NCBI RefSeq assembly: GCF_000179635.2
Contig: NC_014833.1
Coordinates: forward strand, 2,730,001 to 2,762,000
DNA length: 32,000 bases
DNA from: Ruminococcus albus 7 = DSM 20455
Lineage (GTDB): Bacteria; Bacillota; Clostridia; Oscillospirales; Ruminococcaceae
Direction of reading: 5' to 3'
A program made the translations under genes and the position numbers. The number at the start of each line of letters is the position of its first letter. Position 1 is the first letter of the stretch. The notes under the pieces are model-generated. The model was not told the DNA's origin and ran no database searches. It was given only the letters and a program-made list of their open reading frames with translations. Of the stretch, positions 2,625 to 25,268 are shown piece by piece.

Positions 2625-2626
2625 AA

Positions 2627-4036: not shown

Positions 4037-4048
4037 GGAGGATAGAAA

Positions 4049-6071: not shown

Positions 6072-6486
6072 TTTTTACAATGAAGTACTCATAGATCATA
6101 ATCTTCATCCTCAGCATCTTCATGAACTTCCCTGCGCTACCTGTTCAAATGCAGGGCTCAACCCTACCTGCGGAGATTCGCTTACCCTTCATCTTTCAAT
6201 AGAATCAGGCATAATAAAGGACGGTTCCTTTACAGGTGTTGGATGTGCGATATCTCAGGCTTCCACCGATATCATGCTTGATCTCATCATAGGCAGAACA
6301 CCCGATGAAGCAAGACATCTGAGCGACCTTTTCGGCAGAATGATAAACGGAACCATATCCGATGAGGAACTGGAAGAACTTGAAGAAGCAGGTGCGTTAC
6401 AGAATATCTCTAAAATGCCTGCAAGAGTCAAGTGTGCTACTCTCGGCTGGAAAACACTTGAAAAACTTCTGGACGAGAATATCTGA
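6061..6486 (+). CDS. sufU: SUF-system zinc-dependent sulfurtransferase/scaffold SufU (IscU/NifU N-terminal-like)
   Basis: 141 aa with NPTCGD, GVGCAISQAS and PARVKCATL cysteine motifs. It overlaps the sufS stop by 11 nt. AGGAGG RBS. Confidence 0.9.
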   Translation: MSDNFYNEVLIDHNLHPQHLHELPCATCSNAGLNPTCGDSLTLHLSIESGIIKDGSFTGVGCAISQASTDIMLDLIIGRTPDEARHLSDLFGRMINGTISDEELEELEEAGALQNISKMPARVKCATLGWKTLEKLLDENI

Positions 6487-6534
6487 TGACCCGTACTGAT
6501 GCATATATCAATATATCTATTATGAGGAGCATTC

Positions 6535-7680
6535 ATGGAAAACGAACTTTTTTTCAAAGGAAAATTCGGTATTGAACGAGAAACACTTCGCGTGGACAAG
6601 GATCTCAGGCTGTCGCAGACACCTCATCCTTTTACTGATACCGCCAACATCACCCGTGATTTCTGCGAAAATCAGATAGAACTGATAACCTCGGTCTGTT
6701 CAAGTGTACAGGAAACTATTTCTGAACTTGAAAAGCTGGACAGGACAGTCAGAGATACACTTGACAAATCCGGCGAGATCATCTGGATGTATTCAAATCC
6801 GCCCCATATCGCAAGCGAGGACGATATCCCCGTGGCTAATTTCACAGGCAGGCATTCCGAGAAGCGCCGCTACCGCGAACAGCTTGAAAAACGCTACGGA
6901 AAACGGCTCATGCTGTTTTCGGGGATACACTTCAACTTCTCCTTCGATGACGGGTATCTGCATACCCTGTATAAGGGCGATGACTTTTCTGCATGGCGGG
7001 ACAGCTTTTATCTCAGGCTTTATAAGCAGGTAAGCTTTCACAGCTGGCTGCCTCTTCTGCTGACGGCTGCAAGTCCCATATATGATCGTTCACTTGACGA
7101 AGACGGTGCAGCAGGTGCAGTGCTTGGTAAATATTCATCCGTCAGAAGCAGTGAACGCGGTTACTGGAACAGCTTTGTACCTATACTCAGATTCGGCAGT
7201 CTGGCAGACTTTGTGGAAAGCGTAAAGGAATACGTTGACAACGGAAGCCTGTTTTCCGCAAGTGAGCTTTATCTTCCCGTAAGGCTGAAACCCAAAGGCG
7301 TAAATCATATAGATAATTTTGCAGGCGGGGTCAGCCATATAGAACTGAGAATGTTTGACCTCAACCCTACAGAAGATCTGGGAATCGATGCAAATGATCT
7401 TGAGTTTGCTCATCTGCTTATAATGTATCTTTCATGTCAGCCCGATCTCGATTTCACACCCGAACGTCAGGTACAGGCTGTGAAAAACCACCAGAACGCC
7501 GCACTTTACAATCTTGACGGCGTAACGATAGACGGCGTACCGATACTTGAAAAAGCTTCTGAGATACTTGATAGTATGGAAGAATTTTTCAGGAGTAATA
7601 CTGATGCTGTCGGTATAATAAGATATGAAAAAGACAAACTGAAAAACAGACTCTGTGAAAGAATAAAAGTCTGCGGATAG
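6535..7680 (+). CDS. gshA: Glutamate-cysteine ligase (GshA-type gamma-glutamylcysteine synthetase)
   Basis: N-terminus FGIERETLRV...ENQIELIT...RYREQLEKRYGKRLMLFSGIHFNFS closely parallels E. coli GshA (GLERETLRV...YGALMQTISGVHYNFS). 381 aa, shorter than the 518-aa E. coli enzyme. GAGGAG RBS. Confidence 0.8.
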   Translation: MENELFFKGKFGIERETLRVDKDLRLSQTPHPFTDTANITRDFCENQIELITSVCSSVQETISELEKLDRTVRDTLDKSGEIIWMYSNPPHIASEDDIPVANFTGRHSEKRRYREQLEKRYGKRLMLFSGIHFNFSFDDGYLHTLYKGDDFSAWRDSFYLRLYKQVSFHSWLPLLLTAASPIYDRSLDEDGAAGAVLGKYSSVRSSERGYWNSFVPILRFGSLADFVESVKEYVDNGSLFSASELYLPVRLKPKGVNHIDNFAGGVSHIELRMFDLNPTEDLGIDANDLEFAHLLIMYLSCQPDLDFTPERQVQAVKNHQNAALYNLDGVTIDGVPILEKASEILDSMEEFFRSNTDAVGIIRYEKDKLKNRLCERIKVCG

Positions 7681-7690
7681 AGGTGATGAT

Positions 7691-8446
7691 ATGTGCGAGC
7701 TGTTAGGTTTTTCAGCAGCCCGGAAAGAAGATCTTTCTGATCTTCTTCGTGAGTTTTTTTCTCACAGCGAAAAAAATCCCCACGGGTGGGGCATGATGTA
7801 CGATCCCGATCGCAGGATCATCAAAGGCGCCGGAAAAGCCTATGACAGCAGCGAGCTTTACGAACTGCTGGAGAATATTTCTCCTCAGGATACACTTCTC
7901 GCACATATACGCTATGCAACGGTCGGCAAGATAAGGATAGAGAACTGCCATCCTTTTTCCGGGAGAGATATTTCAGGACGCGAATGGACACTGATCCACA
8001 ACGGTACCATATATTCTGGAAAGGATTCGTATAAATATCTGAATAAACAGATCGGCGATACCGACTCCGAAAGATTGTTCCTGTCATTCATGGATACGAT
8101 GAATGATGCGATCTCAAAGGGAAAGCTCACCGAGCGCGAACGTTTTGCTGTTGTTGACCGTTTCATTACAGACAACGCCCCGAGGAACAAGCTCAATCTC
8201 ATCATTTACGACGGTGATCTGATGTATGCACATAAAAATCTGAAAAATACCCTTTGCATCAAAAGATACGGCAAAGGTACACTGATAGCGACCGTTCCCC
8301 TTGATGACAGCAAGTGGGCACCGTTCCCCATGGCTCAGGTCATAGCTTTCAGACAAGGCAAAGTGGTCTATAAAGGGGAACGCCACAAAGGGATATTTGT
8401 CCCCACACTGGAATATATCACAGCGCTTGATGCTATGAATATATGA
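7691..8446 (+). CDS. Class II (Ntn) glutamine amidotransferase-like protein, YafJ/EgtC-like
   Basis: Starts MCELLGFS, so Cys2 is the N-terminal nucleophile as in YafJ (MCELLGMS). Also NPHGWG, HIRYATVG, NCHPF, LIHNG and TDSE motifs. GAGGTGATG RBS, 10 nt after the gshA stop. Confidence 0.8.
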   Translation: MCELLGFSAARKEDLSDLLREFFSHSEKNPHGWGMMYDPDRRIIKGAGKAYDSSELYELLENISPQDTLLAHIRYATVGKIRIENCHPFSGRDISGREWTLIHNGTIYSGKDSYKYLNKQIGDTDSERLFLSFMDTMNDAISKGKLTERERFAVVDRFITDNAPRNKLNLIIYDGDLMYAHKNLKNTLCIKRYGKGTLIATVPLDDSKWAPFPMAQVIAFRQGKVVYKGERHKGIFVPTLEYITALDAMNI

Positions 8447-8488
8447 TATCGGTACAGACAATATCTCAAAACGGAAGGAGCATAGTAA

Positions 8489-8938
8489 ATGAAGATCTCA
8501 ACAAGAGTTGAATACGGGATCATAGCACTTGCAGACATAGCGATAAACGGTGCCAACGGCAAGACCGTTTCATCATCGGATATATCCGAAAGACAGGATA
8601 TATCTCAGAAATATCTGGAGCAGATTATCATAAGCCTGCGTCAGGGCGGATTTGTAAAAGGTCAGAAAGGCTCGCGCGGCGGATATATGCTTTCTCGTCC
8701 TGCCGAGAAAATATATCTTTCTGAGATTCTCAACGCACTCGACAACAGCATCCTTGCCGATGCTTATGAGGAAAGCGAAGAGAATACAGCAGGGATGCGT
8801 AACTCGGTAAACTGTTGTCTTTGGGACAAAATAAACAGCTATATGCGCAGCTTCACCGAACAGATGACCCTTGCCGACCTGATAGCGGGACACAAAGAAA
8901 ACACTGAGGATCCCGAGATCAATATGTACTATATATAA
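8489..8938 (+). CDS. Rrf2 family transcriptional regulator (CymR/IscR-like)
   Basis: MKISTRVEYGIIALADIA N-terminus and the winged-helix segment ISQKYLEQIIISLRQGGFVKGQKGSRGGYMLSR are canonical Rrf2. The IscR-type 3-Cys cluster-ligand pattern is not obvious. Confidence 0.9.
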   Translation: MKISTRVEYGIIALADIAINGANGKTVSSSDISERQDISQKYLEQIIISLRQGGFVKGQKGSRGGYMLSRPAEKIYLSEILNALDNSILADAYEESEENTAGMRNSVNCCLWDKINSYMRSFTEQMTLADLIAGHKENTEDPEINMYYI

Positions 8939-8983
8939 TATAAACCAAATATATGAAGATAAATATGACAGGAGGAATACATT

Positions 8984-9886
8984 ATGCCATTAAGACTTAA
9001 AGAATCTCTTCCCGTCATCGAAAAGCTCAAAAAGGAAAACATTTTTGCGATGACGGAAGAACGTGCAAGCCATCAGGACATCAGAGAGCTGAAAATAGCT
9101 ATACTCAATCTCATGCCCGATAAGGAGAACACTGAACAGCAGCTTCTTCGTCTGTTGTCAAATTCGCCTTTGCAGATCGACGTAACTTTTGTAAGACTCG
9201 TATCACACAAGTACAAAAATACTCCGCTCTCATATCTTCTGAAGAACTACTGCCCTTTCTACGAGATAGAGAACAAGTACTTCGACGGTCTGATAATCAC
9301 AGGAGCTCCCGTGGAAAAGCTGGAGTATGAGGATGTGGACTACTGGGGCGAACTGACCTCAATAATGGAGTGGGCAAGGCTCCACGTTACATCTACGCTG
9401 TATCTTTGCTGGGCAGCTCAGGCAGGTCTTTATTATCACTATGGAGTTAATAAATTCGATTACGATAAAAAGCTGTCGGGTATATACGAACATACTGTGA
9501 CTGATCCTACAGATGAGCTGGTAAGAGGCTTTGATAAGAACTTCTATGCTCCCCATTCAAGGTATACAGGAATATCCAGGGATGATATAGAAAAGAATCC
9601 CGAACTTACCATACTGGCAGGCTCAGAAATCACAGGTCCTTATATCATATCCGACGGCGGAAGCAATATATTCGTCAACGGCCATCCCGAGTACGATCTC
9701 TATCGTCTGGCTGAGGAATACATACGCGATACCGATGCTGGTCTTGATCCCGATATCCCCGTGAACTATTTCCCCGATGATGACCCCGACAACGAACCCG
9801 TCAGCCGCTGGATCTCAGCATCCAGTCTGCTGTTCTCAAACTGGCTCAACTATTTCGTATATCAGATAACTCCATACAAATTCTGA
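8984..9886 (+). CDS. metA: Homoserine O-acyltransferase MetA (acetyl- or succinyl-transferase)
   Basis: 300 aa with IAILNLMPDKENTEQQLLRLL, GLIITGAPVE, HSRYT and NGHPEYD motifs typical of MetA/MetAA. AGGAGG RBS. Confidence 0.93.
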   Translation: MPLRLKESLPVIEKLKKENIFAMTEERASHQDIRELKIAILNLMPDKENTEQQLLRLLSNSPLQIDVTFVRLVSHKYKNTPLSYLLKNYCPFYEIENKYFDGLIITGAPVEKLEYEDVDYWGELTSIMEWARLHVTSTLYLCWAAQAGLYYHYGVNKFDYDKKLSGIYEHTVTDPTDELVRGFDKNFYAPHSRYTGISRDDIEKNPELTILAGSEITGPYIISDGGSNIFVNGHPEYDLYRLAEEYIRDTDAGLDPDIPVNYFPDDDPDNEPVSRWISASSLLFSNWLNYFVYQITPYKF

Positions 9887-9913
9887 TCACACCTGAGATC
9901 CAATAATATATAC

Positions 9914-9948
9914 AACTCCCGGAAACGCATAGTTTCCGGGAGTTTTTT
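9914..9948 (+). terminator. Rho-independent terminator after metA
   Basis: 13-bp perfect stem AACTCCCGGAAAC / GTTTCCGGGAGTT with loop GCATA, followed by TTTTTT. Confidence 0.85.
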
Positions 9949-10237
9949 GTTATTACTTCCTGCCATTCCATATTTTCTATCATTAGCCGATCGTCTTTTG
10001 ACCAAGATCTTAGACTCTTTCGCCATCACCTCACCCTTCGTCAAATTCATTGGCTCGGGAACACTAGCAGCATACTCTATCCGCTTAGCCTTTGCCTGTT
10101 CATTCATCCAATGCTTTGTATGAACGTTCTGCCTACCTTTCTCCGAAGCGTATGACACATCGCAGGTGCAATCATCATGCCGCCTGCACACATCTTCGAG
10201 GGACTTCATCAGGGCATCAGTATCTATTTCCTTTCAG

Positions 10238-10272
10238 AAAAAAAGCGGCGGGAAGCTATCGAACTTCCCGCC
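10238..10272 (-). terminator. Rho-independent terminator ending the nitrogenase-like operon
   Basis: Stem GGCGGGAAG / CTTCCCGCC (10247-10255 / 10264-10272). On the minus strand it is followed by a T7 run (plus-strand A-run 10238-10244). It lies 10 nt after the stop of the last gene. Confidence 0.8.
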
Positions 10273-10281
10273 ATGCTATTT

Positions 10282-10614
10282 CTATACCAGCTTATCCTCA
10301 ATAAATCTGTTTAGTACCGCGTCAATAGGTCCGCTTACCTCAAACACTCTCACTCCCCTGCCTATGAGGTATGCTGCTGCACCCTCACCTATCTTCTGGA
10401 CCAGTACTGCGTCACAGTCCGCGAGAAGTTCGATGATCTTGTCAAAGCGTGTAGTGTCATGCCCAAGTGTCTGTTGTGTAACTGCTACTGCATCACGCAC
10501 ATCACTGAATGTGTATCCGTCTTCGCCAAGATCATAAACCCTGAAAAACTTTGCGTGCCCGAAGTGTTCGTTGACGGTGAATCCGTCAGAAGTTGCTATT
10601 GCCAGTCTTGACAT
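10282..10614 (-). CDS. NifX/NifB-C-terminal-like FeMo-cofactor-binding domain protein (copy 2)
   Basis: 110 aa. MSRLAIATSDGFTVNEHFGHAKFFRVYDL...CDAVLVQKIGEGAAAYL matches the dinitrogenase FeMo-cofactor-binding (NifX/NafY/NifB C-terminal) domain pattern. Confidence 0.8.
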   Translation of the reverse strand: MSRLAIATSDGFTVNEHFGHAKFFRVYDLGEDGYTFSDVRDAVAVTQQTLGHDTTRFDKIIELLADCDAVLVQKIGEGAAAYLIGRGVRVFEVSGPIDAVLNRFIEDKLV

Positions 10615-10628
10615 AGTATCATTCCTTT

Positions 10629-10661
10629 CAAAAATATCTCCTGCCGGGTGACAGGAGATAT
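10629..10661 (-). terminator. Intra-operon hairpin with T-run (partial terminator/attenuator or RNA-processing site)
   Basis: Perfect 10-bp stem ATATCTCCTG / CAGGAGATAT (10634-10643 / 10652-10661) with an 8-nt loop. It is followed on the minus strand by TTTTT and sits in the 52-nt gap between the NifK-like and NifX-like genes. Confidence 0.5.
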
Positions 10662-10666
10662 TTTCT

Positions 10667-12007
10667 TTATTTATATGTTGCCAATGAGGTATTGTAGATG
10701 TCCTCTATTACTCTCAGACCGCCTGTATAACCAACGTAATTTGTAGTCAGCACTATGCGGTAAGGTGTGGGGCAGGCTATCGAAAGAAAGTCTGCGTCTA
10801 TTTCTCCTGCAAGTTCCTTGTCCCAGCCGCTGCCGAGTATAAGTCCTCTTCCCTTGTGTTCAAGACCTCTGATAACGTCCTGCATTGCACCTGCATCTGG
10901 ATCAAAGTATACAGGTATATCACGCTTGTCAGATACCGACTTTATCTCAGCTTCTATCTCGTCCTGATACTTCTTGGGAACATTGTCCACAATGAACTGC
11001 TCCTTGGGAACTACACCTGTTTCATGAAGCAGGAATTTGGTAAGACCAACTACATATCCCGAATCATGCAGAATATGTGCATAGGAAGGCAGACCGTAAC
11101 GGAATTCCAGCAGGAATGTTGCCAGATTGTCAAGCTCCTCGTAGTAAGCCTTTTCTTCCTCCTCAATGAACTTCTTAGCTTTCTTCTCGTCTATCTCTGC
11201 GCCCTGTTCAAGTGCGAATGCAAGCACGCCGTTCAGGAACTTTGTAGTCTCGTTTGCACCGATAGGCAGATAGCCGAACTTGAAGTAAGGCTGACCGTAT
11301 CTTCTCTGAAGATTCTTTACTATGGGCTCACCGTACCAGGGAGATACGAACACATTGAAGTTCGCCTTGGGTATGGTCTGCCATTCCTTTACACCGCCCG
11401 AGTGGGGTCCGAAAAGGATATTGACTTTCAAGCCCAGACCTTCAAGCAGACGCTTGTACTCTTTAAGGTTGCCCTTCCAGAACTGATCCTGATAGGGTAT
11501 GGAAGCTATAACGTTAACAAGATTTTTCTCAGAACGAGAAGGATTATCATCTTCAAAACGGCTTACGTACTGATCGATGATAGCATTTACCACAGCCGAA
11601 TGTGATACATAGTTGTTGGATTTGAAACCCGAAGTTTCAACGTGAACTATGGGTCTGTCCTCCTCAAAAAGGAACTCATCCGTTACGCTTGCAACGTCAT
11701 CACCTACGATACCTGCGGTACATCCCGTGACTACTACCTGCAGGTCTGTATCAAGCACCTTGTAGGTGTTCTTTATAATATTGCGAAGTCTGTCGGTACC
11801 ACCGAATACTACTTCCTTTTCGCTGAAATTAGTACAGGGTGCGGTTTCACCGCCTGCATAGCCTGCCGAACGCTCAAAAAAGCCCTTTATCATAACTCCG
11901 CAGCCCGGTCCTGAATGAAGTATCGGTACAGCGCGGGGGATAGCTACTACAGTCTGCAGTGCTCCGATGGCACAAGTGTAGCGCTCCTGTTCAATAAGTC
12001 CTGCCAT
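10667..12007 (-). CDS. Nitrogenase component-1 family protein, NifK/NifN-like (beta-type subunit)
   Basis: 446 aa. Cys motifs YTCAIGALQ, HSGPGCG and VTGCTAGIVGDD align by eye with P-cluster ligands Cys70/95/153 of NifK. AAAGGAG RBS, 14 nt after the NifD-like stop. Confidence 0.85.
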   Translation of the reverse strand: MAGLIEQERYTCAIGALQTVVAIPRAVPILHSGPGCGVMIKGFFERSAGYAGGETAPCTNFSEKEVVFGGTDRLRNIIKNTYKVLDTDLQVVVTGCTAGIVGDDVASVTDEFLFEEDRPIVHVETSGFKSNNYVSHSAVVNAIIDQYVSRFEDDNPSRSEKNLVNVIASIPYQDQFWKGNLKEYKRLLEGLGLKVNILFGPHSGGVKEWQTIPKANFNVFVSPWYGEPIVKNLQRRYGQPYFKFGYLPIGANETTKFLNGVLAFALEQGAEIDEKKAKKFIEEEEKAYYEELDNLATFLLEFRYGLPSYAHILHDSGYVVGLTKFLLHETGVVPKEQFIVDNVPKKYQDEIEAEIKSVSDKRDIPVYFDPDAGAMQDVIRGLEHKGRGLILGSGWDKELAGEIDADFLSIACPTPYRIVLTTNYVGYTGGLRVIEDIYNTSLATYK

Positions 12008-12021
12008 ATATTATTTCTCCT

Positions 12022-13491
12022 TTACTTTCCCAAGAATGTATAAGGCTCCTGCTCAAGCCACCATTTGGTATAAGGGTTTGTTGAATGCTTAGCCAAATTC
12101 TTTACGAACTCATCGTTCTCGATGGTTTCGAGTATTCTCTCACCGTAGTTTACAAGACCCTCATAACCCATACCGAAATGCTCATCGCCTACCAGCAGCG
12201 AGGGTATACCAAGCTTAGCGCCCCAAAGGGTCATGCCGCCGTGACGTGCCAGAAGTATATCGGGCTTGATGCGGTTGAGTACGTTCACAAGTTCAAATTC
12301 CTGCTTGTTGCAGACATTGTAGTTTGGCACATCGCCGTAATCTGCAACAGTATGGCTGAGTGTATCTGCACGCTCGTCCTCGTTATCGTACTGAGGATCA
12401 TGGTGGAATATTGCAGCGCCCTGAGGTTCCATACCCAGTTCTTTCAGCAGTGCCAGCAGAGAATGTCCGTGGGAAGCACCTGCTGTAACGTAAGCGGTCT
12501 TGCCCTTCAGCTTCTCACGCAGAGCTTCTATCTTTGGCATATATTCAGCCTTCTTGCGTGCAAGGAATTCTTCAACTTCCTTTTCCTTGCCGATTATCTG
12601 ACCAAGCTCCCTGAACCAGCGGTCTGTCTGTGCAATACCGTAAGGAGGTGAATTACGTATCTCAGGTACACCGAAGCCCTGCTCCAGCGCAGCACCAAGA
12701 TATGAACCAAGTGTTGAGCAAGCCTGTACAGTAAGTGCAGCTTCACTTGAATAGCTGAGCGAATCAACAGTCGCAAAAGGAGTAATATAGTTTGGCTCAT
12801 ATCCGAACTCAGCAAACCACTCACGGAAAATATCACTGCCCCAGAAGTTGATAACATTGATGATATTTCTCTTCTGTCTTGCAGGCTTGATTATCTTTCT
12901 GGCGATGCCGTGGTATCCCGCATCGAAGCCCGATGTCCACATCTTTGAACGGAAGCCCTCGCAGAATACTGCAACAACCGGTATACCAAGCTCTTTCTGA
13001 GCCGCATTTGTTACGCTCTCAACATCATCACCGATGATACCTGCAGCACAGGTAGTTATAACGAATATCGCACTTGGCTTAGCACGCTTGTGTACCTCGC
13101 GTATAGCGGCTTCAAGCTTCTTGCCGCCGCCGTAAATGGTATCCTTTTCTTCCAGATTGGTAGAGTAAATCTTTCTCTGTGTGGGATGTTCAAGCTGTCT
13201 GAGGTATGCATTAACACGGTAGGTGAATGCAAACTCATGCAGGCAGGTCGAGCATCCGACAGGACCGTGGGAGATTATCGCAGCGTCCTGGATAAGGGTC
13301 AGTGTACAGGCTGCATTTGATGTTCCGCAGCCAAGGCACTGGCTGAAAGAACGATTCTTGTCCTTCATCTTGCCGCCGCAGGCAGCGCAGGCATCAACGA
13401 GTTCTTTAGCTGTTCCCTGAAATCCCGTGATCGAGTTAAGACGTATCTCACGGATCTCGACTTCGGGTATATTCAAATTGACTTTACTCAT
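12022..13491 (-). CDS. Nitrogenase component-1 family protein, NifD-like (alpha-type subunit)
   Basis: 489 aa. LGCG, ISHGPVGC and TTCAAGIIGDD match the P-cluster ligand positions. QACSTLGSY aligns by eye with NifD HCYRSMNY (Cys275), and GDEH with REMH (His442). AAGGAG RBS, 16 nt after the NifH-like stop. Confidence 0.85.
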   Translation of the reverse strand: MSKVNLNIPEVEIREIRLNSITGFQGTAKELVDACAACGGKMKDKNRSFSQCLGCGTSNAACTLTLIQDAAIISHGPVGCSTCLHEFAFTYRVNAYLRQLEHPTQRKIYSTNLEEKDTIYGGGKKLEAAIREVHKRAKPSAIFVITTCAAGIIGDDVESVTNAAQKELGIPVVAVFCEGFRSKMWTSGFDAGYHGIARKIIKPARQKRNIINVINFWGSDIFREWFAEFGYEPNYITPFATVDSLSYSSEAALTVQACSTLGSYLGAALEQGFGVPEIRNSPPYGIAQTDRWFRELGQIIGKEKEVEEFLARKKAEYMPKIEALREKLKGKTAYVTAGASHGHSLLALLKELGMEPQGAAIFHHDPQYDNEDERADTLSHTVADYGDVPNYNVCNKQEFELVNVLNRIKPDILLARHGGMTLWGAKLGIPSLLVGDEHFGMGYEGLVNYGERILETIENDEFVKNLAKHSTNPYTKWWLEQEPYTFLGK

Positions 13492-13507
13492 CTTTATATC
13501 TCCTTCA

Positions 13508-14371
<864 letters not shown>

Positions 14372-14452
14372 TTACCTCATTTCATATAATTGATATATCG
14401 TATACCTTTGTGGTACTGTGATATATTCTTTTTTAACAACATATTAATTTTT

Positions 14453-15334
14453 CTACCCGTGTGAGAATGTATCCTTACGGGATAACCTCTTTAAGTTTGT
14501 GTATATCTTGCTTCCCAGATCTTCACCGCCGGGAATGCCTACCGCATCTGCGCGGCATCTCTGACAATGCCTGAAAACATCGATATACTTTGAAGCTTTC
14601 AGTACCGCTCTCTCGAACTCCATGCAGTCGGGTTCGCGGCAATCCTTCAGCTTTGCGTTCGGTATAAGCGGGATAATATTGTATATATCCGCACCTGCTT
14701 CCGCAACGGTCTTTGCCACTTCTTCGATATGATCACCGTTTATCTCGGGAACGAACACGGTGTTCACCTTTACTGTTATTCCTGCCTCGCTTATTATGCG
14801 TATACCCTTCAGCTGCTGCTCGATGAGTATCTCAGCGGCTTCAACACCGGTGTAGTGCTTGCCATGCCATACGATACCATCATTGAGCTGAGCTTCTATC
14901 TCAGGATCTACAGCGTTTACAGTCACCGTAAGTGAATCCACACCCACGTCAATTATCTCCTGAGCCTTTTCAGCCAGCAGCAGACCATTAGTGCTCATAC
15001 ACTTCACAAGCTGCGGAAACTCCTTCTTTACCAGCCTGAATGTTTCCAGCGCGTATGGACTTGCAAGTGTATCACCCGGACCTGCTATACCTGCTACGTG
15101 TATGGCAGGACATAGTTCAAGTGCCTTGCCGATAGCCTCTATGGCTTCCTCAGGTGAAATGACCGTCGAGGTAACACCCGGACGTTTCTCGTATGTATTT
15201 ACGCTGCGCTCACAGAATCTGCACTGGATATTGCAGGTCGGGCTGACAGGCAGATGCATACGACCGTTGCCGCTGTTTGGTCCCTTTGCAAAGCATGGAT
15301 GCTTTGTTGTCAGTTCTTCGTATGAGACCGCCAT
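14453..15334 (-). CDS. nifB: NifB-like radical SAM protein (stand-alone SAM domain, no fused NifX domain)
   Basis: HPCF...GRMHLPVSPTCNIQCRFCERS...RPGV is the NifB N-terminal/radical-SAM signature. I prefer ATG 15334, which lies 6 nt after the GGAGGT RBS. The ORF-track start at 15373 lacks an RBS. Confidence 0.85.
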   Translation of the reverse strand: MAVSYEELTTKHPCFAKGPNSGNGRMHLPVSPTCNIQCRFCERSVNTYEKRPGVTSTVISPEEAIEAIGKALELCPAIHVAGIAGPGDTLASPYALETFRLVKKEFPQLVKCMSTNGLLLAEKAQEIIDVGVDSLTVTVNAVDPEIEAQLNDGIVWHGKHYTGVEAAEILIEQQLKGIRIISEAGITVKVNTVFVPEINGDHIEEVAKTVAEAGADIYNIIPLIPNAKLKDCREPDCMEFERAVLKASKYIDVFRHCQRCRADAVGIPGGEDLGSKIYTNLKRLSRKDTFSHG

Positions 15335-15681
15335 TTGTCCACCTCCCATTGTTTTTCTTCCATCAGCAGACATAGTGCCTGCTCTATACTCAGAGGGATC
15401 TGGTATACTCTTATACCCTGCTCCTCTATATACTTCTTAGCTCCCGGACCTGCTCTCTGAGCTACCACTGCGCTGACATCGCCAAGCGCATCCAGGGCTG
15501 CTGCAAATCCCGATACCTCATGTTGTCCGCCGTTACATGACGGTTTCACATCAACGTGACCGCCAATATCATAGTCGTCCTTCTCAGTATCGATCTCTGC
15601 GATATAAAACTTTTTTGCCGCACCGAAATGCTCGTTAATGTTTTCGCCGTCGCTGCTTGCAAATGCGATCTTATAAATCAT
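15310..15681 (-). CDS. NifX/NifB-C-terminal-like FeMo-cofactor-binding domain protein (copy 1)
   Basis: 123 aa. MIYKIAFASSDGENINEHFGAAKKFYIAEI...VSAVVAQRAGPGAKKYIEEQGIRVY. It has the same domain family as 10282-10614. Its 3' end overlaps the NifB-like start by 25 nt. Confidence 0.8.
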   Translation of the reverse strand: MIYKIAFASSDGENINEHFGAAKKFYIAEIDTEKDDYDIGGHVDVKPSCNGGQHEVSGFAAALDALGDVSAVVAQRAGPGAKKYIEEQGIRVYQIPLSIEQALCLLMEEKQWEVDKWRSHTKN

Positions 15682-15700
15682 CTAAACCATCTTTTCTCCA

Positions 15701-16609
15701 TCAGCCGAATAATCCCGTGCTGAAATATCTGTCACCTCTGTCCGGCAGGACTGCAACGATAACGCCCTTTTCGATCCTCTTTGCCAGCTTCAATGCCGCA
15801 GCGGCCGCAGCACCTGAGGATGAACCTGCTATGATTCCCTCATTACGTGCAAGCTGTCCTACTGTCCTGAAAGCATCATCGTCATTCACCTTGATGACTT
15901 CGTCTACCAGACCTATGTCCATCGTTTCAGGTATAAAATCATTACCGATACCCTCAATATTATAATCGAAGTGTTCGCCGCCTCCTATGGTCGAGCCTTC
16001 GGGGTCTGCAAGCACGCCAACGATATTCGGGTCATGCTCCTTGAGGTATCTTGCTATACCTGTGTAAGTTCCGCCGCTGCCTGCGCCTGCGACGAAATGT
16101 GTGACCTTTCCGCCGATATCCTCCCATATCTCTCTGCCCGTATTCTCATAATGTGCCAGAGGATTGTTGGGATTCTTGAATTGCTCCAGTGATATCGAAT
16201 CGGGTATCTGTGCTTTAAGCTCCTCAGCCTTGCGCACAGCTCCCAGCATTCCCTCAGCGCGGGGTGTATTTATCACCTCAGCCCCCAGCGCCCTCATAAG
16301 AGCTTGTTTTTCAGCGGAAAACTTAGTCGGGACTGTGAATATTACTCTGTAGCCTTTTCCAAGTGCTGCGAATGCTATACCGAGTCCCGTATTGCCTGCG
16401 GTAGCTTCTATAATAGTACTGCCCGGCTTTAAGCGTCCCTCTTTTTCAGCAGCAGCTATCATGTATTCGCCTATGCGATCCTTAACACTGCCCGAGGGAT
16501 TATACATCTCCAGTTTACCATATATCTGTACATCGGGGGAGACCCCCATATTATTCAGCCTCACAAGCGGTGTGTGACCTATGAGGTCATGCATATTCTC
16601 ATATATCAT
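15701..16609 (-). CDS. cysK: Cysteine synthase family PLP enzyme (CysK / MccA-type O-acetylserine-dependent sulfhydrylase or cystathionine beta-synthase)
   Basis: 302 aa. HTPLVRL, PLP-lysine motif PSGSVKDR, TAGNTG loop and GAGSGGT. The start is separated by 1 nt from the upstream stop (TGAtATG), which suggests translational coupling. Confidence 0.88.
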   Translation of the reverse strand: MIYENMHDLIGHTPLVRLNNMGVSPDVQIYGKLEMYNPSGSVKDRIGEYMIAAAEKEGRLKPGSTIIEATAGNTGLGIAFAALGKGYRVIFTVPTKFSAEKQALMRALGAEVINTPRAEGMLGAVRKAEELKAQIPDSISLEQFKNPNNPLAHYENTGREIWEDIGGKVTHFVAGAGSGGTYTGIARYLKEHDPNIVGVLADPEGSTIGGGEHFDYNIEGIGNDFIPETMDIGLVDEVIKVNDDDAFRTVGQLARNEGIIAGSSSGAAAAAALKLAKRIEKGVIVAVLPDRGDRYFSTGLFG

Positions 16610-16610
16610 A

Positions 16611-17768
16611 TCACTTTACCTCGCTTGCTTTTATTGCATTGTCAAGATCTTCCAGTATATCGTCTATATTCTCGATACCTATGGAAAGTCTTATCAGACC
16701 ATCTGTTATGCCTACCTTTTTACGTATATCCTCAGGGATAGATGCGTGTGTCATGCTTGAAGGATGGCATACCAGTGATTCAACACCACCAAGACTTTCT
16801 GCAAGTGTGATAAGCTGCAGACTTTCAAAGAACACTCTGATATCGTAGTTGTCCTTCAGCTCGAAGGATATCATCACGCCGCCGTTCTTAGCCTGTTTCC
16901 TGTTCACCTCATAACCCTTGTCAGATTCAAGTCCCGGATAATGAACGCTCTTAACAGCTTCATGTCCGGTAAGGAATTTTGCAGCAGCCTCAGCATTAGC
17001 TACGTGCCTGTCAAGTCTTACTCCCAGTGTCTTGATACCTCTTATCAGCAGGAAACTGTCAAACGGAGGAAGTACTCCGCCTGTGGAATTCTGTATGAAA
17101 GCTATCTTTTCAGCAAGCTCCTTGGTCTTTACAACTGCAAGACCTGCAACTACATCACTGTGTCCTCCGAGATACTTGGTAGCTGAATGTACTACTATAT
17201 CAGCACCCAGTTCAAGGGGTCTTTGCAGATAGGGGGTCATGAATGTATTATCAACTATCACCAGAAGATTATGCTTGTGAGCTATCTCAGCGATCGCCCT
17301 TATATCTGTTATTGTCATCAGAGGGTTTGCAGGACTTTCGATCAGTACTGCCTTTACATCCTCTGTGATATCCTTCTCAAAAGCAGCAGGATCATCAGTT
17401 TCTGATATCGTATAGTTTATACCGAAGTGATCAAATACCTGATTCAGCAGCCTGAAAGTACCGCCGTATACATTTGAGGATATCAGCACCCTGTCACCCG
17501 TATGCAGAAGACTGAGTACAGCAGTTTCAGCAGCAAGACCGCTCGCAAATGCAAATCCTGCATATCCTCCTTCCAGTTCTGCGATAAGTGCTTCAAGTGC
17601 TTCCCTTGTGGGATTGCCTGTACGGGAATATTCATATCCTCTCATCTTGCCAAGACCATCCTGCTTGAATGTTGAGGTCTGATATATAGGTACATTCACA
17701 GCACCCGTTCTTTCGTCAGTGGATATACCGCCGTGTATCAAAGCTGTTTCTATTTTTTTGTAACTCAT
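16611..17768 (-). CDS. Cys/Met-metabolism PLP-dependent enzyme (cystathionine gamma-synthase/lyase, MetB/MetC/MccB class)
   Basis: IHGG...PIYQTSTF...YSRTGNPT...SATKYLGGHSDVVAG (PLP Lys). About 385 aa from ATG 17768 (MSYKKIETALIHGG). The ORF-track start at 17843 adds a non-homologous 25-aa extension that covers the predicted promoter. Confidence 0.88.
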   Translation of the reverse strand: MSYKKIETALIHGGISTDERTGAVNVPIYQTSTFKQDGLGKMRGYEYSRTGNPTREALEALIAELEGGYAGFAFASGLAAETAVLSLLHTGDRVLISSNVYGGTFRLLNQVFDHFGINYTISETDDPAAFEKDITEDVKAVLIESPANPLMTITDIRAIAEIAHKHNLLVIVDNTFMTPYLQRPLELGADIVVHSATKYLGGHSDVVAGLAVVKTKELAEKIAFIQNSTGGVLPPFDSFLLIRGIKTLGVRLDRHVANAEAAAKFLTGHEAVKSVHYPGLESDKGYEVNRKQAKNGGVMISFELKDNYDIRVFFESLQLITLAESLGGVESLVCHPSSMTHASIPEDIRKKVGITDGLIRLSIGIENIDDILEDLDNAIKASEVK

Positions 17769-17814
17769 ATCTTTCATTCCTTTCATATTTTTCCTATGTG
17801 CTTGGTATGAATTA

Positions 17815-17843
17815 ATGATACACGATAAATCCGATTTAGTCAA
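17815..17843 (-). promoter_or_regulatory. Putative sigma-A promoter of the PLP-enzyme/nitrogenase-like operon
   Basis: On the minus strand: TTGACT (17838-17843), 17-nt spacer, TATCAT (17815-17820), about 45 nt upstream of ATG 17768. A weaker alternative (TTGATC-16-TAACAT) lies at 17919-17946. Confidence 0.45.
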
Positions 17844-17851
17844 CAGCGAAG

Positions 17852-17869
17852 CGTGATAACGTTATCACG
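17852..17869. promoter_or_regulatory. Operator O1: perfect 18-bp palindrome CGTGATAACGTTATCACG (LacI/GalR-type site)
   Basis: The sequence is perfectly self-complementary around a central CG. It lies 8 bp upstream of the predicted -35 and matches the general LacI-family consensus TGnnAnCGnTnnCA. Confidence 0.7.
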
Positions 17870-17965
17870 TCTATGTTCCCCATGTCATGATTTCTATATC
17901 CCGGCGGGTGATTTCAGGATGTTAGAGTAAATAATTTTTTGATCAATTATTAATCTCGCCGTTAC

Positions 17966-17983
17966 GGAGATAACGTTGTCACG
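17966..17983. promoter_or_regulatory. Operator O2: GGAGATAACGTTGTCACG (15/18 match to O1)
   Basis: It shares the core GATAACGTTGTCAC. The central CG is 114 bp from that of O1. Confidence 0.55.
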
Positions 17984-18053
17984 CTGTATCCCCCTGAATA
18001 CTTGCTTGTCTTCTCGCATCCGTCAGCACTTTTATATGTATTTGCCCAAATCC

Positions 18054-18071
18054 AGTGATAACGTTATCGTT
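18054..18071. promoter_or_regulatory. Operator O3: AGTGATAACGTTATCGTT (core GTGATAACGTTATC identical to O1)
   Basis: 14-nt core identity with O1. The central CG is 88 bp from that of O2. It lies just downstream of the LacI-family gene. Confidence 0.6.
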
Positions 18072-18085
18072 TTATTGCAAGCATT

Positions 18086-18109
18086 ATGCCGACGATCTGT
18101 CATCGGCAT
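18086..18109 (-). terminator. Hairpin after the LacI-family gene (weak terminator, no T-run)
   Basis: Stem ATGCCGACGA / TCATCGGCAT (9 of 10 pairs) with loop TCTG, 12 nt after the stop. No U-tract follows on the minus strand, so read-through into the operon is possible. Confidence 0.35.
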
Positions 18110-18120
18110 TAAACTTATAT

Positions 18121-19194
18121 TTATATATAGTACTCAGGTTCGTTGAGCTCTCTGTAAGGCTGGCAGCTCTCACGTATGACCAGCGTACCTTCCACCTCCA
18201 GCCGCGATACTATTTTATGACCGCCTTTTATGCGGTCAAGCAGCAGCATCAGTGCGAACCTTACCATTTCGTTTTTCGGAAGTGATATGGTCGTCAGCAT
18301 CGGCTTGGTATACTGTGCCGCCTCAATATCATCACTGGATATCACTGACGGTGCATACCCGCGTCCTCTTCGCCTGTTTAGAGCTTTCAGCATACCCACA
18401 GCCAGGATATCATTTGCACAGTATATACCCGTAGGCGGATCATCCAGATTGCTGAAATATTCCATAGCCGCGATACCGTTAGCCTCATTGGGCAGCGTAT
18501 CGAAGATATGATCAATATCAGGTGAAAGACGGTTGTTTGTCAGCGCCGCCTGATATCCCGCAAAACGCGATTCATTATGGCAATCACCAACGTATCCTAT
18601 TTTTGTGTGTCCCAGCTTTGCCAGATACCCAACAGCCGTCTGTGCTATCCTGCTGCCGTCACACAAGACCTCGTCCGCCTCGTAATTAGTTGAATTACGG
18701 TTTATGGAAACTATATTCTTTTCCTTGGTTTTAAGCAGCTTCAGCGCTCTGGCTGTAACCTTGCCTATCACAATCAGCCCGTCGGAATGCTGTCCCGATG
18801 AAGGATAAAGCTCATCTGTCAATATTTTTAGCCTGTCAGTCTTACTCAGCTTTTCATCAGAGAACTCAGCGTTATGCCATATATTACCTATTATACAGCT
18901 GCTGTTGCGAAGTTCCTTTTCCAGGGTCATCAGCATTTCTTCATAAAACGGATCTGTAGTTTCATGAGCAAATCTGGTCAGCAGTATATTCACGTGGTAT
19001 ATCTTGTCCTCATTCCTGCTGCCCGATCTAAGGGAACGTGCGCTCGCATTCGGTATATAGTTGATCTCACGTGCTGCTTCCAGCACTCGCTTTCTCACAT
19101 CTTCGCTGGAGCATTTGTGGTTGGGATCACTAAGTATCCTGCCGACCGTCGAGACTGATACACCCGTCATTTCGGAGATCTTTTTCAGAGACAC
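18121..19194 (-). CDS. LacI/GalR family transcriptional regulator
   Basis: The N-terminal HTH (V)SLKKISEMTGVSVSTVGRILSD...YIPNASARSLRSG is followed by a periplasmic-binding-protein-like effector domain. GTG start lies 7 nt after the GGAGGG RBS. 357 aa. Confidence 0.9.
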   Translation of the reverse strand: MSLKKISEMTGVSVSTVGRILSDPNHKCSSEDVRKRVLEAAREINYIPNASARSLRSGSRNEDKIYHVNILLTRFAHETTDPFYEEMLMTLEKELRNSSCIIGNIWHNAEFSDEKLSKTDRLKILTDELYPSSGQHSDGLIVIGKVTARALKLLKTKEKNIVSINRNSTNYEADEVLCDGSRIAQTAVGYLAKLGHTKIGYVGDCHNESRFAGYQAALTNNRLSPDIDHIFDTLPNEANGIAAMEYFSNLDDPPTGIYCANDILAVGMLKALNRRRGRGYAPSVISSDDIEAAQYTKPMLTTISLPKNEMVRFALMLLLDRIKGGHKIVSRLEVEGTLVIRESCQPYRELNEPEYYI

Positions 19195-19237
19195 CCAAAC
19201 ACCCTCCTTTCCGCTATTTCATATCGGGATAATATGA

Positions 19238-19266
19238 ATTATACCAAATATCTGGAAATTTGTCAA
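19238..19266 (-). promoter_or_regulatory. Consensus sigma-A promoter for the LacI-family regulator
   Basis: On the minus strand: TTGACA (19261-19266), 17-nt spacer, TATAAT (19238-19243), about 40 nt upstream of the GTG start. Confidence 0.6.
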
Positions 19267-19409
19267 CAGGATAAATGTTAACTTTTTTTAACTTTGCAGC
19301 ATTGGATCCCTCAACTTCATTTCTTTATTATATATACATTTATAATAATAATTTATACCTCAGCTATTGGTATAGTTTAAAGCTATATCTATCTATGCAT
19401 AATAAGTAT

Positions 19410-19438
19410 TTTACTTTCACCTAATGATGTGATATAAT
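19410..19438 (+). promoter_or_regulatory. Putative original metE promoter, now separated from metE by the IS
   Basis: TTTACT (19410-19415), 17-nt spacer, then extended -10 TGaTATAAT (19430-19438). With the IS removed it would lie about 55 nt upstream of the metE ATG. Confidence 0.4.
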
Positions 19439-19471
19439 ATTTTATAGAAAATCATATAGGTTTAATATGAT

Positions 19472-19480
19472 ATTAAAAAT
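19472..19480. repeat. Target-site duplication, left copy (ATTAAAAAT)
   Basis: Identical 9-mer at 20503-20511, immediately outside the inverted repeats. The true duplication could be 8 or 9 bp depending on the exact element end. Confidence 0.75.
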
Positions 19481-19481
19481 C

Positions 19482-19506
19482 ATGGTTATCCCTTTAACAC
19501 ACCACA
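19482..19506. repeat. IS left terminal inverted repeat
   Basis: ATGGTTATCCCTTTAACACACCACA. The reverse complement of 20478-20502 differs at one position. Confidence 0.8.
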
Positions 19507-19594
19507 GATAATTTACAATGCTGTCCAAATAAACAGACCTCAAAAACCGGAAAATATAGTATAATAGTGACAGGAAACGAAAGGAGCTGTCGCT

Positions 19595-20470
19595 ATGTCA
19601 AAAAGATTTCCGAAACCTGAGATCACACTTGATGGGATATATTCAAAGTTCGCAGATGAAAGCTTTTGCAAGGATTTTCTGCTTGATATCCGCTTTGAAA
19701 AGGGCTTTGCCTGCCCGTTTTGCGGTGGCTCTGAGTACCGCAGGATAAGGTCACGCCATCTGCTGCGCTGCAAGTTCTGTAAAGCAGATATATCCGCCAC
19801 AAACGGAACTTTTATGCACAGAACACATATTCCGCTCAGACTGTGGATAGTCACCGCATTCCTCATTATGAGCAACAAATGCAGTGTTTCTGCTGTTACG
19901 CTGATGAGGTCTTTGGGGGTGACCTACAAGACTGCATGGTACATCCTTCACCGCATCAGAAAAGCTATGAAATGCCGTGAAGAACGCTATTTGCTCGACG
20001 GAATCGTTGAACTTGATGACACGTATCTCGGTGCTCCGACTCACGGTAAAAAGCGCGGCAGAGGTACTGAAAAAGTCAAGATGATCGTAGCTTTATCGAA
20101 GAACGCAGCAGGAAATCCCGAGTACGTTAAAATGAGAGATGTGCCGAATTTAAAGGGTATAACTGTGGGTAGATTTGCCAGGGATAATATCCGCGCTGGC
20201 TCGAAGATCGAGAGTGATAATGCTCGAAGTTACAAGAAACCGTTGGCACAGAAATACTTCCATGTTTTTGAAACATATGATCCGACAAGCGGTCAGCTGA
20301 ATTGGATGCATAAAGTTATATCAAACTTCAAAGCAATGATCATGGGAACTTACCACGGAAACGAAAAGATCCACACAGCGTTATATGCTGCCGAATACTG
20401 TTACAAATTCAACCGTCGTAAGCTGGGAAACAGTGCGTATTTAAGGCTTTTGGCTGCTTTGGTGCAGTGA
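19595..20470 (+). CDS. IS1595 family (ISXO2-like) transposase
   Basis: 291 aa with an N-terminal zinc ribbon (CPFCGGSEY...RCKFCKADIS), then a DDE region (VELDDTYLG...IESDNARSY...). This architecture matches IS1595/ISXO2-like transposases. AAAGGAG RBS. Confidence 0.85.
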   Translation: MSKRFPKPEITLDGIYSKFADESFCKDFLLDIRFEKGFACPFCGGSEYRRIRSRHLLRCKFCKADISATNGTFMHRTHIPLRLWIVTAFLIMSNKCSVSAVTLMRSLGVTYKTAWYILHRIRKAMKCREERYLLDGIVELDDTYLGAPTHGKKRGRGTEKVKMIVALSKNAAGNPEYVKMRDVPNLKGITVGRFARDNIRAGSKIESDNARSYKKPLAQKYFHVFETYDPTSGQLNWMHKVISNFKAMIMGTYHGNEKIHTALYAAEYCYKFNRRKLGNSAYLRLLAALVQ

Positions 20471-20477
20471 TCTTACT

Positions 20478-20502
20478 TGTGGTGTGTTAAGGGGATAACC
20501 AT
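20478..20502. repeat. IS right terminal inverted repeat
   Basis: TGTGGTGTGTTAAGGGGATAACCAT, the complement of the left IR with one mismatch. Confidence 0.8.
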
Positions 20503-20511
20503 ATTAAAAAT
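20503..20511. repeat. Target-site duplication, right copy (ATTAAAAAT)
   Basis: Identical to 19472-19480. It directly abuts the metE RBS (GGAGG 20513-20517). Confidence 0.75.
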
Positions 20512-20525
20512 TGGAGGAAATACAC

Positions 20526-24984: not shown

Positions 24985-25268
24985 TTAATTACTTAACTGT
25001 AACAGTTATAGCGTTCTTGATAGGATCAGTTGTATTCCACTTACCGTTAACTCTTGCAGCAACAGCTACCTTGTAGGTCATGCCGGGAGTAAGGTTCTTA
25101 GGAGTTACATAGCTGTTTGTGGTGATGTTAGTTGTCTGAACTCTCCACTTACCAGCCAGATATACAGCGATGCCGTACTTGTCAGCGCCCTGTACCTTGT
25201 CCCATACGAACTGGATCTGGTGATACTGAGTGCTGTAGTTAGCCTTTACGTTTGTAGGATAATCAGTC
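24985..25268. repeat. Direct repeat, copy A of ~280 bp (3' FN3-like module of GH9 gene 1)
   Basis: By-eye alignment with 28668-28951 gives about 24 mismatches and no indels over ~280 nt, roughly 90% identity. Similarity stops abruptly at the 5' boundary of the module. Confidence 0.85.

Follow-up and report, generated by a model that had tools for sequence, protein, structure and literature searches.

A 32,000-nt stretch of the genome of Ruminococcus albus 7 = DSM 20455 (contig NC_014833.1 of assembly GCF_000179635.2, positions 2,730,001 to 2,762,000; hereafter the window, in whose own numbering all positions are given) carries eight nitrogenase-like and sulfur-related genes on its minus strand (10282-17786), arranged as one operon. 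We consider it probable that this operon encodes an ATP-driven, C-S-bond-cleaving sulfur-salvage reductase, which would feed thiol sulfur to two pyridoxal 5′-phosphate (PLP) enzymes encoded on the same transcript. The support that we count for this proposal comes from the metallocluster ligands kept in the D and K subunits, the methylthio-alkane reductase MarDK as their closest solved structure, the gene neighbourhoods in other species, a sulfur island within the window, purifying selection, conserved operators, and published data from Clostridium thermocellum.

Gene content and subfamily of the operon

The gene set was checked by open reading frame (ORF) listing together with independent gene calls on six other contigs encoding an identical D protein, on which the same boundaries were found. 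In the direction of transcription, the operon comprises genes for a gamma-family Cys/Met PLP enzyme (16611-17786, with an equally plausible alternative ATG at 17768), a CysK-family (PALP) PLP enzyme (15701-16609), a first NifX-like cluster-carrier protein (15310-15681; Pfam Nitro_FeMo-Co, 63 bits), a NifB-like radical S-adenosylmethionine protein (14453-15334), a NifH-type Fe protein (H, 13508-14365), the D subunit (12022-13491), the K subunit (10667-12007), and a second NifX-like cluster-carrier protein (10282-10614; Pfam Nitro_FeMo-Co, 79 bits). The Pfam and NCBIfam labels are concordant for all eight genes. ORF listing, gene calls, Pfam, and NCBIfam agree with the same-strand order reported in a first-pass annotation made from the letters of the window, and its junction lengths were exact in all seven cases (1, 19, −25, 87, 16, 14, and 52 nt, the 25-nt overlap being that of the first NifX-like gene with the NifB-like gene). 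Its statement that nifE, nifN, nifV, and nitrogen-regulation genes are lacking was likewise borne out, as no nifE, nifN, nifV, PII, or amtB gene was found anywhere in the 32-kb window, nor any nitrogen-regulatory gene or site in or around the operon. The lack of NifEN and NifV there, together with the Group IV class of the enzyme described below, agrees with its view that the R. albus system does not need them.

When D and K were compared with solved structures, the best matches were MarD for D (447 bits, against 139 bits for the runner-up) and MarK for K (386 bits, against 65 bits for the runner-up), both in PDB entries 9FMG and 9D9U. With the NCBIfam models, D scored 143 bits against the nifD cut-off of 654, and K scored 82 bits against the nifK cut-off of 427. 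Since both are far below the NifD and NifK thresholds, they were assigned to a Group IV nitrogenase-like enzyme and not to a Group I-III nitrogenase, as anticipated in the first-pass annotation.

A neighbour-joining tree was built with 200 bootstraps from the D proteins of 80 genome loci, 50%-identity representatives, and MarD of Rhodospirillum rubrum (RrMarD). The window D fell into a clade with 99-99.5% bootstrap support, which also contains NfaD of Endomicrobium proavitum (P0327, 71% identical to the window D). The Mar clade, supported at 100% and excluding the window, consists of RrMarD, P0125, and the second paralogues of two loci (L020 and L042), and an exclusive grouping of the window with Mar was obtained in 0-0.5% of the bootstrap replicates. 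Identity to the R. rubrum proteins is 42.7% for D (MarD) and 43.2% for K (MarK). The other E. proavitum homologues are 63% (K), 55% (B), 64% (gamma-family PLP enzyme), and 61% (CysK-like enzyme) identical to those of the window. Judged by these comparisons, D and K of R. albus belong to Group IV-A, the Nfa branch, and are not orthologues of Mar, which forms Group IV-C. Identity with MarBHDK, toward which the first-pass annotation had pointed, did not hold up, given D and K at about 43% identity to MarDK in a separate clade, a window-Mar grouping in 0/200 bootstraps, and an H protein that is not of the MarH type.

The cysteines listed for the E. proavitum proteins (NfaD Cys50, Cys53, Cys60, Cys78, Cys81, Cys146, and Cys257; NfaK Cys13, Cys37, and Cys97; PMC13474568) are matched in the window by D cysteines 52, 55, 62, 80, 83, 148, and 258 and K cysteines 12, 36, and 96. 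Among them, C52, C62, and C83 are extra cysteines that correspond, with the same spacing, to C50, C60, and C81 of E. proavitum, and RrMarD has glycine at the first and third of these positions. Two loci, L020 (Ruminococcus sp. UBA7013, 2405-13868) and L042 (2080-11479), hold a IV-A and a true Mar (IV-C) D/K pair side by side, with a single H and a single B gene apparently common to both pairs. The presence of both types in one locus indicates that they are paralogues, presumably with different jobs.

The ligand and pocket residues of Mar (PMC12552129) were then mapped onto the R. albus proteins. All eight MarDK cluster ligands are kept (8/8; in MarD these include Cys270 and His429, with Arg428 on Loop I). 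By this mapping, the putative P-cluster would be held by C55, C80, and C148 of D and C12, C36, and C96 of K, and the putative L-cluster, [Fe8S9C], by C258 and H417 of D, with R416 just before H417. Mar residues W195, F199, H375, and R428 are retained as W185, F189, H363, and R416 of D. At the S2B-site pocket, the equivalents of Mar Trp195 and His375 are thus kept, and Mar His194, for which a role in substrate binding or proton transfer has been proposed, is Met184 in the window D and Met, Ile, or Val across the IV-A clade. Mar Gln74 is replaced by Thr.

The Fe protein tells a different lineage story from D and K. H passes the TIGR01287 nifH equivalog model (460 bits, cut-off 394) and scored 465 bits against NifH of Clostridium pasteurianum (1cp2), compared with 281 bits against R. 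rubrum MarH (9fmg_D). It is 77.8% identical to C. pasteurianum NifH, 49.3% to RrMarH, and 48.7% to E. proavitum NfaH, and the latter two proteins are 78% identical to each other. Based on these scores, the window H is of the canonical NifH type, neither of the MarH nor of the NfaH type. Across the 80 loci, a NifH-type H accompanies the IV-A D in 37 and a Mar/Nfa-type H in 18, with both in 0, and the NifH-type proteins of IV-A clusters are approximately as similar to the genuine nitrogenase Fe protein as to each other. This fits the reports that pseudo-nifH genes, mostly from Clostridia, are indistinguishable from true nifH (PMC8597730) and that nifH occurs in 23% of rumen genomes, with negligible N2 fixation in the rumen (PMC6776011). 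The NifB-like protein matched positions 7-280 of the 441-position nifB model TIGR01290 (269 bits), has no NifX domain, and is closest among solved structures to the stand-alone NifB proteins 7bi7 and 7jmb (274 bits); we infer that it synthesizes the [Fe8S9C] L-cluster.

These placements bear directly on an alternative in which the operon encodes a working alternative nitrogenase (NfaBHDK) that fixes N2 in R. albus, the sulfur genes being coincidental or supplying sulfur for the clusters. Such a reading would account for the grouping of D with the 71%-identical E. proavitum NfaD, for the shared extra cysteines C52, C62, and C83, and for the 78% identity of H to true NifH, and it draws on the findings that 85% of E. 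proavitum cell nitrogen came from 15N2 and that nfaH was transcribed only without ammonium (PMC13474568). Even so, we regard it as improbable for R. albus. The nitrogenase-required residues V70, Q191, and H195 correspond to C62/T63, W185, and F189 in the window D; the abundance of nifH in the rumen goes with negligible N2 fixation there (PMC6776011); and the same review that describes Nfa doubts N2 fixation as its primary role, noting that the growth might in part stem from impurities of the N2 gas (PMC13474568). The gene neighbourhoods described below add to these objections. Caldicellulosiruptor, considered as a second N2-fixing relative, was rejected as such, its system being nifHDKEB with NifI1/NifI2, which is another subfamily.

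Gene neighbourhoods and proposed function

The survey covered one genome per species and yielded the 80 loci mentioned above, in which D is 59-98% identical to the window D; the taxa include Ruminococcus, Acetivibrio, Lachnospiraceae, Christensenellaceae, Treponema, Synergistaceae, Endomicrobium, and Paenibacillus. Among the loci from other species, 47 had flanks of 5 kb or more on either side, and in 44 of these 47 a search for preselected gene families located one or more genes of the Cys/Met PLP, CysK-like, MetQ/I, or SsuA/C type no farther than 10 kb away. The gamma-family PLP and CysK-like genes form an adjacent pair in 30/80 loci, MetNIQ-type importers adjoin the IV-A D in 31/80, and NMT1/Ssu-type importers do so in 24/80. 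Clustering of the ORFs within 10 kb without prior labels recovered K (76 loci), NifX (57), ATPases of ATP-binding cassette (ABC) type (56), H (53), and B (53), followed by Cys/Met PLP enzymes (47), CysK-like enzymes (37), MetQ (29), MetI (28), SsuC (21), NMT1/SsuA (20), Rrf2 (18), LacI (13), and metA (9), with Suf/NifU, LysR, and URO-D (Mlp) as rarer clusters. No nitrogen-metabolism or nitrogen-regulation family (PII, nifI, amtB, glnA, nifA, nifEN, or nifV) was recurrent near IV-A D in 82 loci, which speaks against N2 fixation as the task of the R. albus operon.

The same holds for the type locus of the proposed nitrogenase. The E. proavitum cluster (L088; CP009498, 832008-853489) contains metY, an NMT1/Ssu-type ABC importer, NfaD, NfaK, a MetQ fragment, NifX, the gamma-family PLP and CysK-like genes, NfaB, a further NifX, and NfaH, so that the sulfur genes are found in this cluster itself, and no PII gene was found within 10 kb of it. 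The exact eight-gene order, whose co-occurrence the first-pass annotation had proposed to survey, was seen in Ruminococcus only (11 loci); in other taxa, for example in Acetivibrio thermocellus, its components are reshuffled, and the most conserved triad across related loci is D-K-X. Among Ruminococcus species, identities to the window proteins are 89-100% for H, 89-98% for D, and 80-98% for K; these are high relative to the 40-79% of the first NifX and reveal purifying selection on H, D, and K. The identical D protein also occurs in GCA_000621285.1 and in sheep-rumen metagenomes, and a 98%-identical one in Ruminococcus albus AR67.

Two side observations were made in the survey. URO-D family genes, encoding Mlp-type corrinoid methyltransferases, lie near IV-A D/K in L077 (5919-7010) and in three other loci, and an association of mlp gene clusters with such nitrogenase-like genes has been reported (PMC10418091). 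IV-A-type D genes with 61-65% identity were also found in the unexpected metagenome-assembled genomes L063 (Methanosarcina sp.), L068 (Patescibacteria), and L052 (Olsenella), reflecting either horizontal transfer or binning error.

The two PLP enzymes could each be assigned to one of two functions from their model scores. The gamma-family protein (Pfam PF01053, 510 bits) scored 550 bits with the MccB model PRK07671 (cut-off 594) and 542 bits, also below cut-off, with the cystathionine gamma-synthase model PRK06176, and its closest solved structures are 7d7o (456 bits) and 4l0o (454 bits); it would be either an MccB-type cystathionine gamma-lyase/homocysteine desulfhydrase or a cystathionine gamma-synthase. 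The CysK-like protein (PALP, 256 bits) passes the cysKM subfamily model (355 bits, cut-off 344) and reaches 348.8 bits with the cysK equivalog (cut-off 351), with solved-structure matches that are a mixture of cysteine synthases and cystathionine beta-synthases; it is predicted to be either a cysteine synthase or an O-acetylserine-dependent cystathionine beta-synthase of the MccA type. Two routes would fit this pair. In the first, methanethiol would be converted to methionine, and homocysteine to cysteine via an MccA/MccB-type pair; in the second, sulfide would be converted to cysteine via CysK, followed by forward transsulfuration.

Taken together with the ligands and the neighbourhoods, these assignments suggest the following mechanism for the sulfur-salvage reductase. 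The NifB-like enzyme and the two NifX carriers would build the all-iron [Fe8S9C] L-cluster from Fe-S units, with SUF genes located nearby, and the cluster would be loaded directly into D at Cys258/His417 with no need for NifEN, molybdenum, or homocitrate. The NifH-type Fe protein would then pass electrons, with ATP, through the P-cluster held by the six D and K cysteines, and D2K2 would reductively cleave the C-S bond of an organic sulfur compound, yielding a hydrocarbon and, as the thiol, methanethiol, sulfide, or homocysteine. The frequent MetNIQ- and Ssu-type importers at related loci and the His194 replacement suggest that the substrate may be other than the volatile ones of Mar. The thiol would be turned into cysteine and methionine by the two PLP enzymes of the same transcript, the neighbouring MetA supplying O-acylhomoserine, and a LacI-family repressor acting on three operators would control transcription of the operon.

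Data from C. thermocellum, also named A. thermocellus, are in line with this proposal. Its transcriptomes show co-regulation of Cthe_1560 with Cthe_1565 and variation of Cthe_1559/1560 with sulfur genes (PMC3478167, PMC4236516), the PLP genes and the nitrogenase homologue of the cluster being expressed in concert. Acetylene reduction by this organism is reportedly not repressed by ammonium (a finding cited in PMC8209448); such ammonium-insensitive activity would suit a Mar-like enzyme, because Mar, according to a review, reduces acetylene.

Several points weigh against the proposal. The physiology reported for Group IV-A, from E. proavitum and Heliophilum, consists of uptake of 15N2, reduction of acetylene, and a transcription of nfaH restricted to ammonium-free conditions, and no Group IV-A enzyme has been purified so far (PMC13474568). 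The replacement of Mar His194 throughout the IV-A clade means that the chemistry may differ from that of Mar. The gene context is circumstantial, and no riboswitch or T-box was detected upstream at the Rfam gathering thresholds in the window and eight related loci (permissive thresholds over 9800-20600 gave only chance-level matches). The claim of the first-pass annotation that this is a sulfur-acquisition module rather than a diazotrophy module accordingly stands in part: the sulfur and methionine context is present in the window and in 80 other species, but for the only studied members of the clade, E. proavitum and Heliophilum, weak N2 fixation has been reported (PMC13474568). As to the group as a whole, we could argue with equal conviction for or against the broader proposal that Group IV-A, including the E. 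proavitum locus, consists primarily of C-S-cleaving sulfur-salvage reductases, and that a canonical Fe protein of the NifH type was recruited to it in Ruminococcus, Acetivibrio, and numerous Clostridia of the gut.

The importers near related loci raise the question of the substrate. In a second alternative, which we judge to be unlikely though less so than N2 fixation, the sulfur would be acquired from an imported non-volatile compound (a sulfonate, S-methylcysteine, or methionine) and not from a volatile methylthio-alkane; methionine, for example, could be demethylated to homocysteine and methane, after which an MccA/MccB-type pair would produce cysteine. The MetNIQ-type (31/80) and NMT1/Ssu-type (24/80) importers, the paralogy of IV-A with the Mar-type D/K of L020 and L042, the replaced pocket residue equivalent to Mar His194, and the MccB-type enzymes among the top scores of the gamma-family PLP gene are consistent with it. 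Against this, the R. albus operon has no transporter of its own in the window, and MetNIQ genes also lie beside marBHDK in the thiol cluster of R. rubrum (PMC13474568). A third alternative holds that the enzyme does not act on a sulfur compound but reduces a different kind of small molecule (methylated selenides, for example) or matures a metallocluster or cofactor, with the PLP genes merely sharing its regulator. URO-D/Mlp methyltransferases near some related loci, proposed to act on methyl-selenide or methyl-sulfide (PMC10418091), and the cofactor synthesis by other Group IV members (CfbCD) could be cited for it. We find it highly improbable, as the full set of P- and L-cluster ligands matches the catalytic Mar and differs from CfbD, which has only a [4Fe-4S] cluster, and the linked mlp clusters are tied to organisms without selenium metabolism (PMC10418091).

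Transcription signals and surroundings of the operon

A gene for a LacI-family regulator (18121-19194, minus strand; Pfam LacI and Peripla_BP_3) lies 334 nt upstream of the operon, and its product reached no NCBIfam equivalog cut-off. A LacI gene is found beside the operon in 11/80 loci, in 10 of them directly upstream on the same strand and in one (L082) on the opposite strand. Three LacI-type operators lie in the intergenic region that separates this gene from the operon: operator 1, the perfect palindrome TGATAACGTTATCA (17854-17867), located 81 nt upstream of the start of the gamma-family PLP gene and just upstream of the −35 element; operator 2, AGATAACGTTGTCA (17968-17981), 195 nt upstream of that start; and operator 3, the palindromic TGATAACGTTATCG (18056-18069), 283 nt upstream. 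A search of the window with the operator pattern returned 9 matches where 1.5 were expected, the top three being all in this 334-nt gap. In other Ruminococcus species, operators occur at or near −283, −195, and −81, some species having only one or two of them or shifted ones. Since the operators recur though the LacI proteins are just 58-84% identical, they represent a phylogenetic footprint, and we infer that the LacI protein is a candidate repressor acting through the three sites.

Downstream of operator 1, a sigma-70-like sequence, TTGACT-17-TATCAT (17815-17843, minus strand), matches 10/12 consensus positions. However, sigma-70-like matches in the region are no commoner than in shuffled sequence (19 found against 17.9 expected); the promoter at 17843-17815 predicted in the first-pass annotation thus has its consensus match and, as such matches occur at chance frequency, was retained as a candidate only. 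The single strong terminator predicted there was confirmed as an intrinsic terminator closing the operon (10273-10246, minus strand), with a GC-rich hairpin of 12 bp, 7 of them G-C, followed by the T-run CTTTTTTTCT. A further hairpin, with a perfect stem of 13 bp (10631-10664, minus strand), and also overlooked in the first-pass annotation, is situated in the gap that separates the stop codon of K from the start of the last NifX gene; by prediction, it could be a partial terminator lowering read-through into NifX, or an RNA-processing site.

The operon is part of a 22-kb sulfur island, at about 1.9 to 23.7 kb of the window, which contains sufCBDSU, GshA-like and EgtC-like genes, an Rrf2 gene, metA, the operon, the LacI gene, an IS1595 transposase gene, metE, and metF, with the operon strand convergent to the genes on the metA side. 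The flanks are made up of methionine genes much as the first-pass annotation had described, with metA on one side and LacI, metE, and metF on the other, but an IS1595-family transposase gene (19595-20470, plus strand; DDE_Tnp_IS1595 and zinc ribbon) between the LacI gene and metE had been overlooked. Its absence from the six other contigs with the identical D points to a strain-specific insertion, which may cut metE-metF off from the sequence originally upstream of them. The Rrf2 protein scored between IscR and CymR and below the cut-offs of both models. Co-oriented with its gene and metA, a stand-alone GshA-like glutamate-cysteine ligase gene and a weakly EgtC-like class II amidotransferase gene (6535-8446, plus strand) were observed, a pair that hints at a gamma-glutamylcysteine-type thiol pathway in this obligate anaerobe. 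Also noted were a bidirectional terminator hairpin after metA (9914-9944) and, filling the gap between the convergent units, a 115-aa ORF (9862-10209, minus strand) that overlaps the metA 3′ end, has no Pfam match, was gene-called on some of the contigs, and is probably spurious. Beyond the island lie a GGDEF-domain gene (23748-24806) and two large GH9 cellulase genes (24989-28036 and 28672-31368, minus strand), one with CBM3 and fibronectin-III domains, which is consistent with a cellulolytic Ruminococcus.

Significance and comparison with known systems

The link between nitrogenase-like and sulfur genes is not itself new. Nitrogenase-like genes beside those for O-acetylhomoserine sulfhydrylase or cysteine synthase were noted by Dos Santos et al. 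(2012) in R. rubrum, Clostridium beijerinckii, and Geobacter (PMC3464626); a 2023 preprint reported sulfur genes in the vicinity of "group IV-A" MarHDK-like genes in organisms of the C. thermocellum type (PMC10418091); and reviews consider Mar-like systems likely in Clostridia and mention MarDK homologues in Bacillota. The first-pass annotation was therefore right to call the arrangement uncharacterised as far as the R. albus operon itself goes, but not as regards this link, published in 2012 and 2023, or the C. thermocellum set, which appears in transcriptomes. Nor are NifX-like carriers a departure from the mar loci, as it had supposed, since NifX is already known beside the Mar-type genes of Rhodopseudomonas palustris Mar2 (bioRxiv 2026.08.20.746119). 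New in the present study are the Group IV-A placement of the R. albus operon, the sulfur genes shared by the E. proavitum type locus, the two Fe-protein lineages, the single-transcript fusion in Ruminococcus, and the conserved triple LacI operator.

Should the sulfur reading be true, Group IV-A, which has been labelled nitrogen-fixing and used in arguments on the origin of nitrogen fixation, would need re-examination. The NifH genes present in roughly one in four rumen genomes would also gain a function, as would the pseudo-nifH genes through which nitrogen fixers are overcounted in metagenomes from gut, sediment, and paddy, and there would be a bacterial, non-archaeal route to methane, ethane, or ethylene in the rumen, with fermenters as the source. 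The function of IV-A could then be addressed in cultured R. albus and in the genetically tractable A. thermocellus. Moreover, the operon offers a natural combination of an ordinary NifH and an L-cluster enzyme that would dispense with molybdenum, homocitrate, and NifEN, which should help in learning why a nitrogenase reduces N2 rather than C-S bonds.

Compared with MarBHDK of R. rubrum, the R. albus system has a similar NifB-like maturase without a NifX domain, an Fe protein, a D2K2 core with no need for NifEN, all the P-cluster and [Fe8S9C] ligands, the Arg-His "hallmark", and a setting of methionine genes. It differs in its D and K, which form their separate clade at about 43% identity, in the His194→Met and Gln74→Thr replacements, in an H that is not of the MarH type, and in carrying the PLP enzymes on the same transcript. 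The likeness to NfaBHDK of E. proavitum is closer, extending to the D/K subfamily, the extra-cysteine signature, and the same eight gene families including two NifX. However, the NfaH there is Mar-like (78% identical to MarH and 49% to the window H) whereas H of R. albus is of the NifH type, the gene order is different, metY and an Ssu-type ABC importer are additionally present, there is no upstream LacI gene, and the published role is N2 fixation with ammonium-repressed transcription.

The PLP pair resembles MccA/MccB of Bacillus subtilis in its adjacent gamma-family and CysK-family genes, in the order mccB-mccA, and in that the first operon gene has its top NCBIfam and PDB matches among MccB-type enzymes. 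Unlike that pair, the R. albus proteins score below the equivalog cut-offs, with scores about equal to those for cystathionine gamma-synthase, and the CysK-like gene is equally close to true cysteine synthases. A further known arrangement of this kind is the ubiG-mccB-mccA operon of Clostridium acetobutylicum. The isethionate reductase IsrBHDK of Rhodobacter capsulatus (Group IV-F) shares the nitrogenase-like, ATP-driven C-S cleavage for sulfur assimilation proposed here, and its cluster is linked to cysK/cysE and ABC importers; it differs in that neither the P-cluster cysteines nor the L-cluster ligands occur in IsrD (PMC13474568), all of which are present in the window D. The A. thermocellus cluster Cthe_1559-Cthe_1573, in turn, has another gene order, broken up by metY and by genes for ABC transporters and an acetyltransferase, with H located 7 kb downstream of D, one NifX instead of two, and no LacI gene, but its proteins are close relatives of those of R. 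albus (D 74%, K 72%, H 79% and likewise of the NifH type, gamma-family PLP enzyme 69%, and CysK-like enzyme 73% identical), and here too an Rrf2 regulator gene lies next door.

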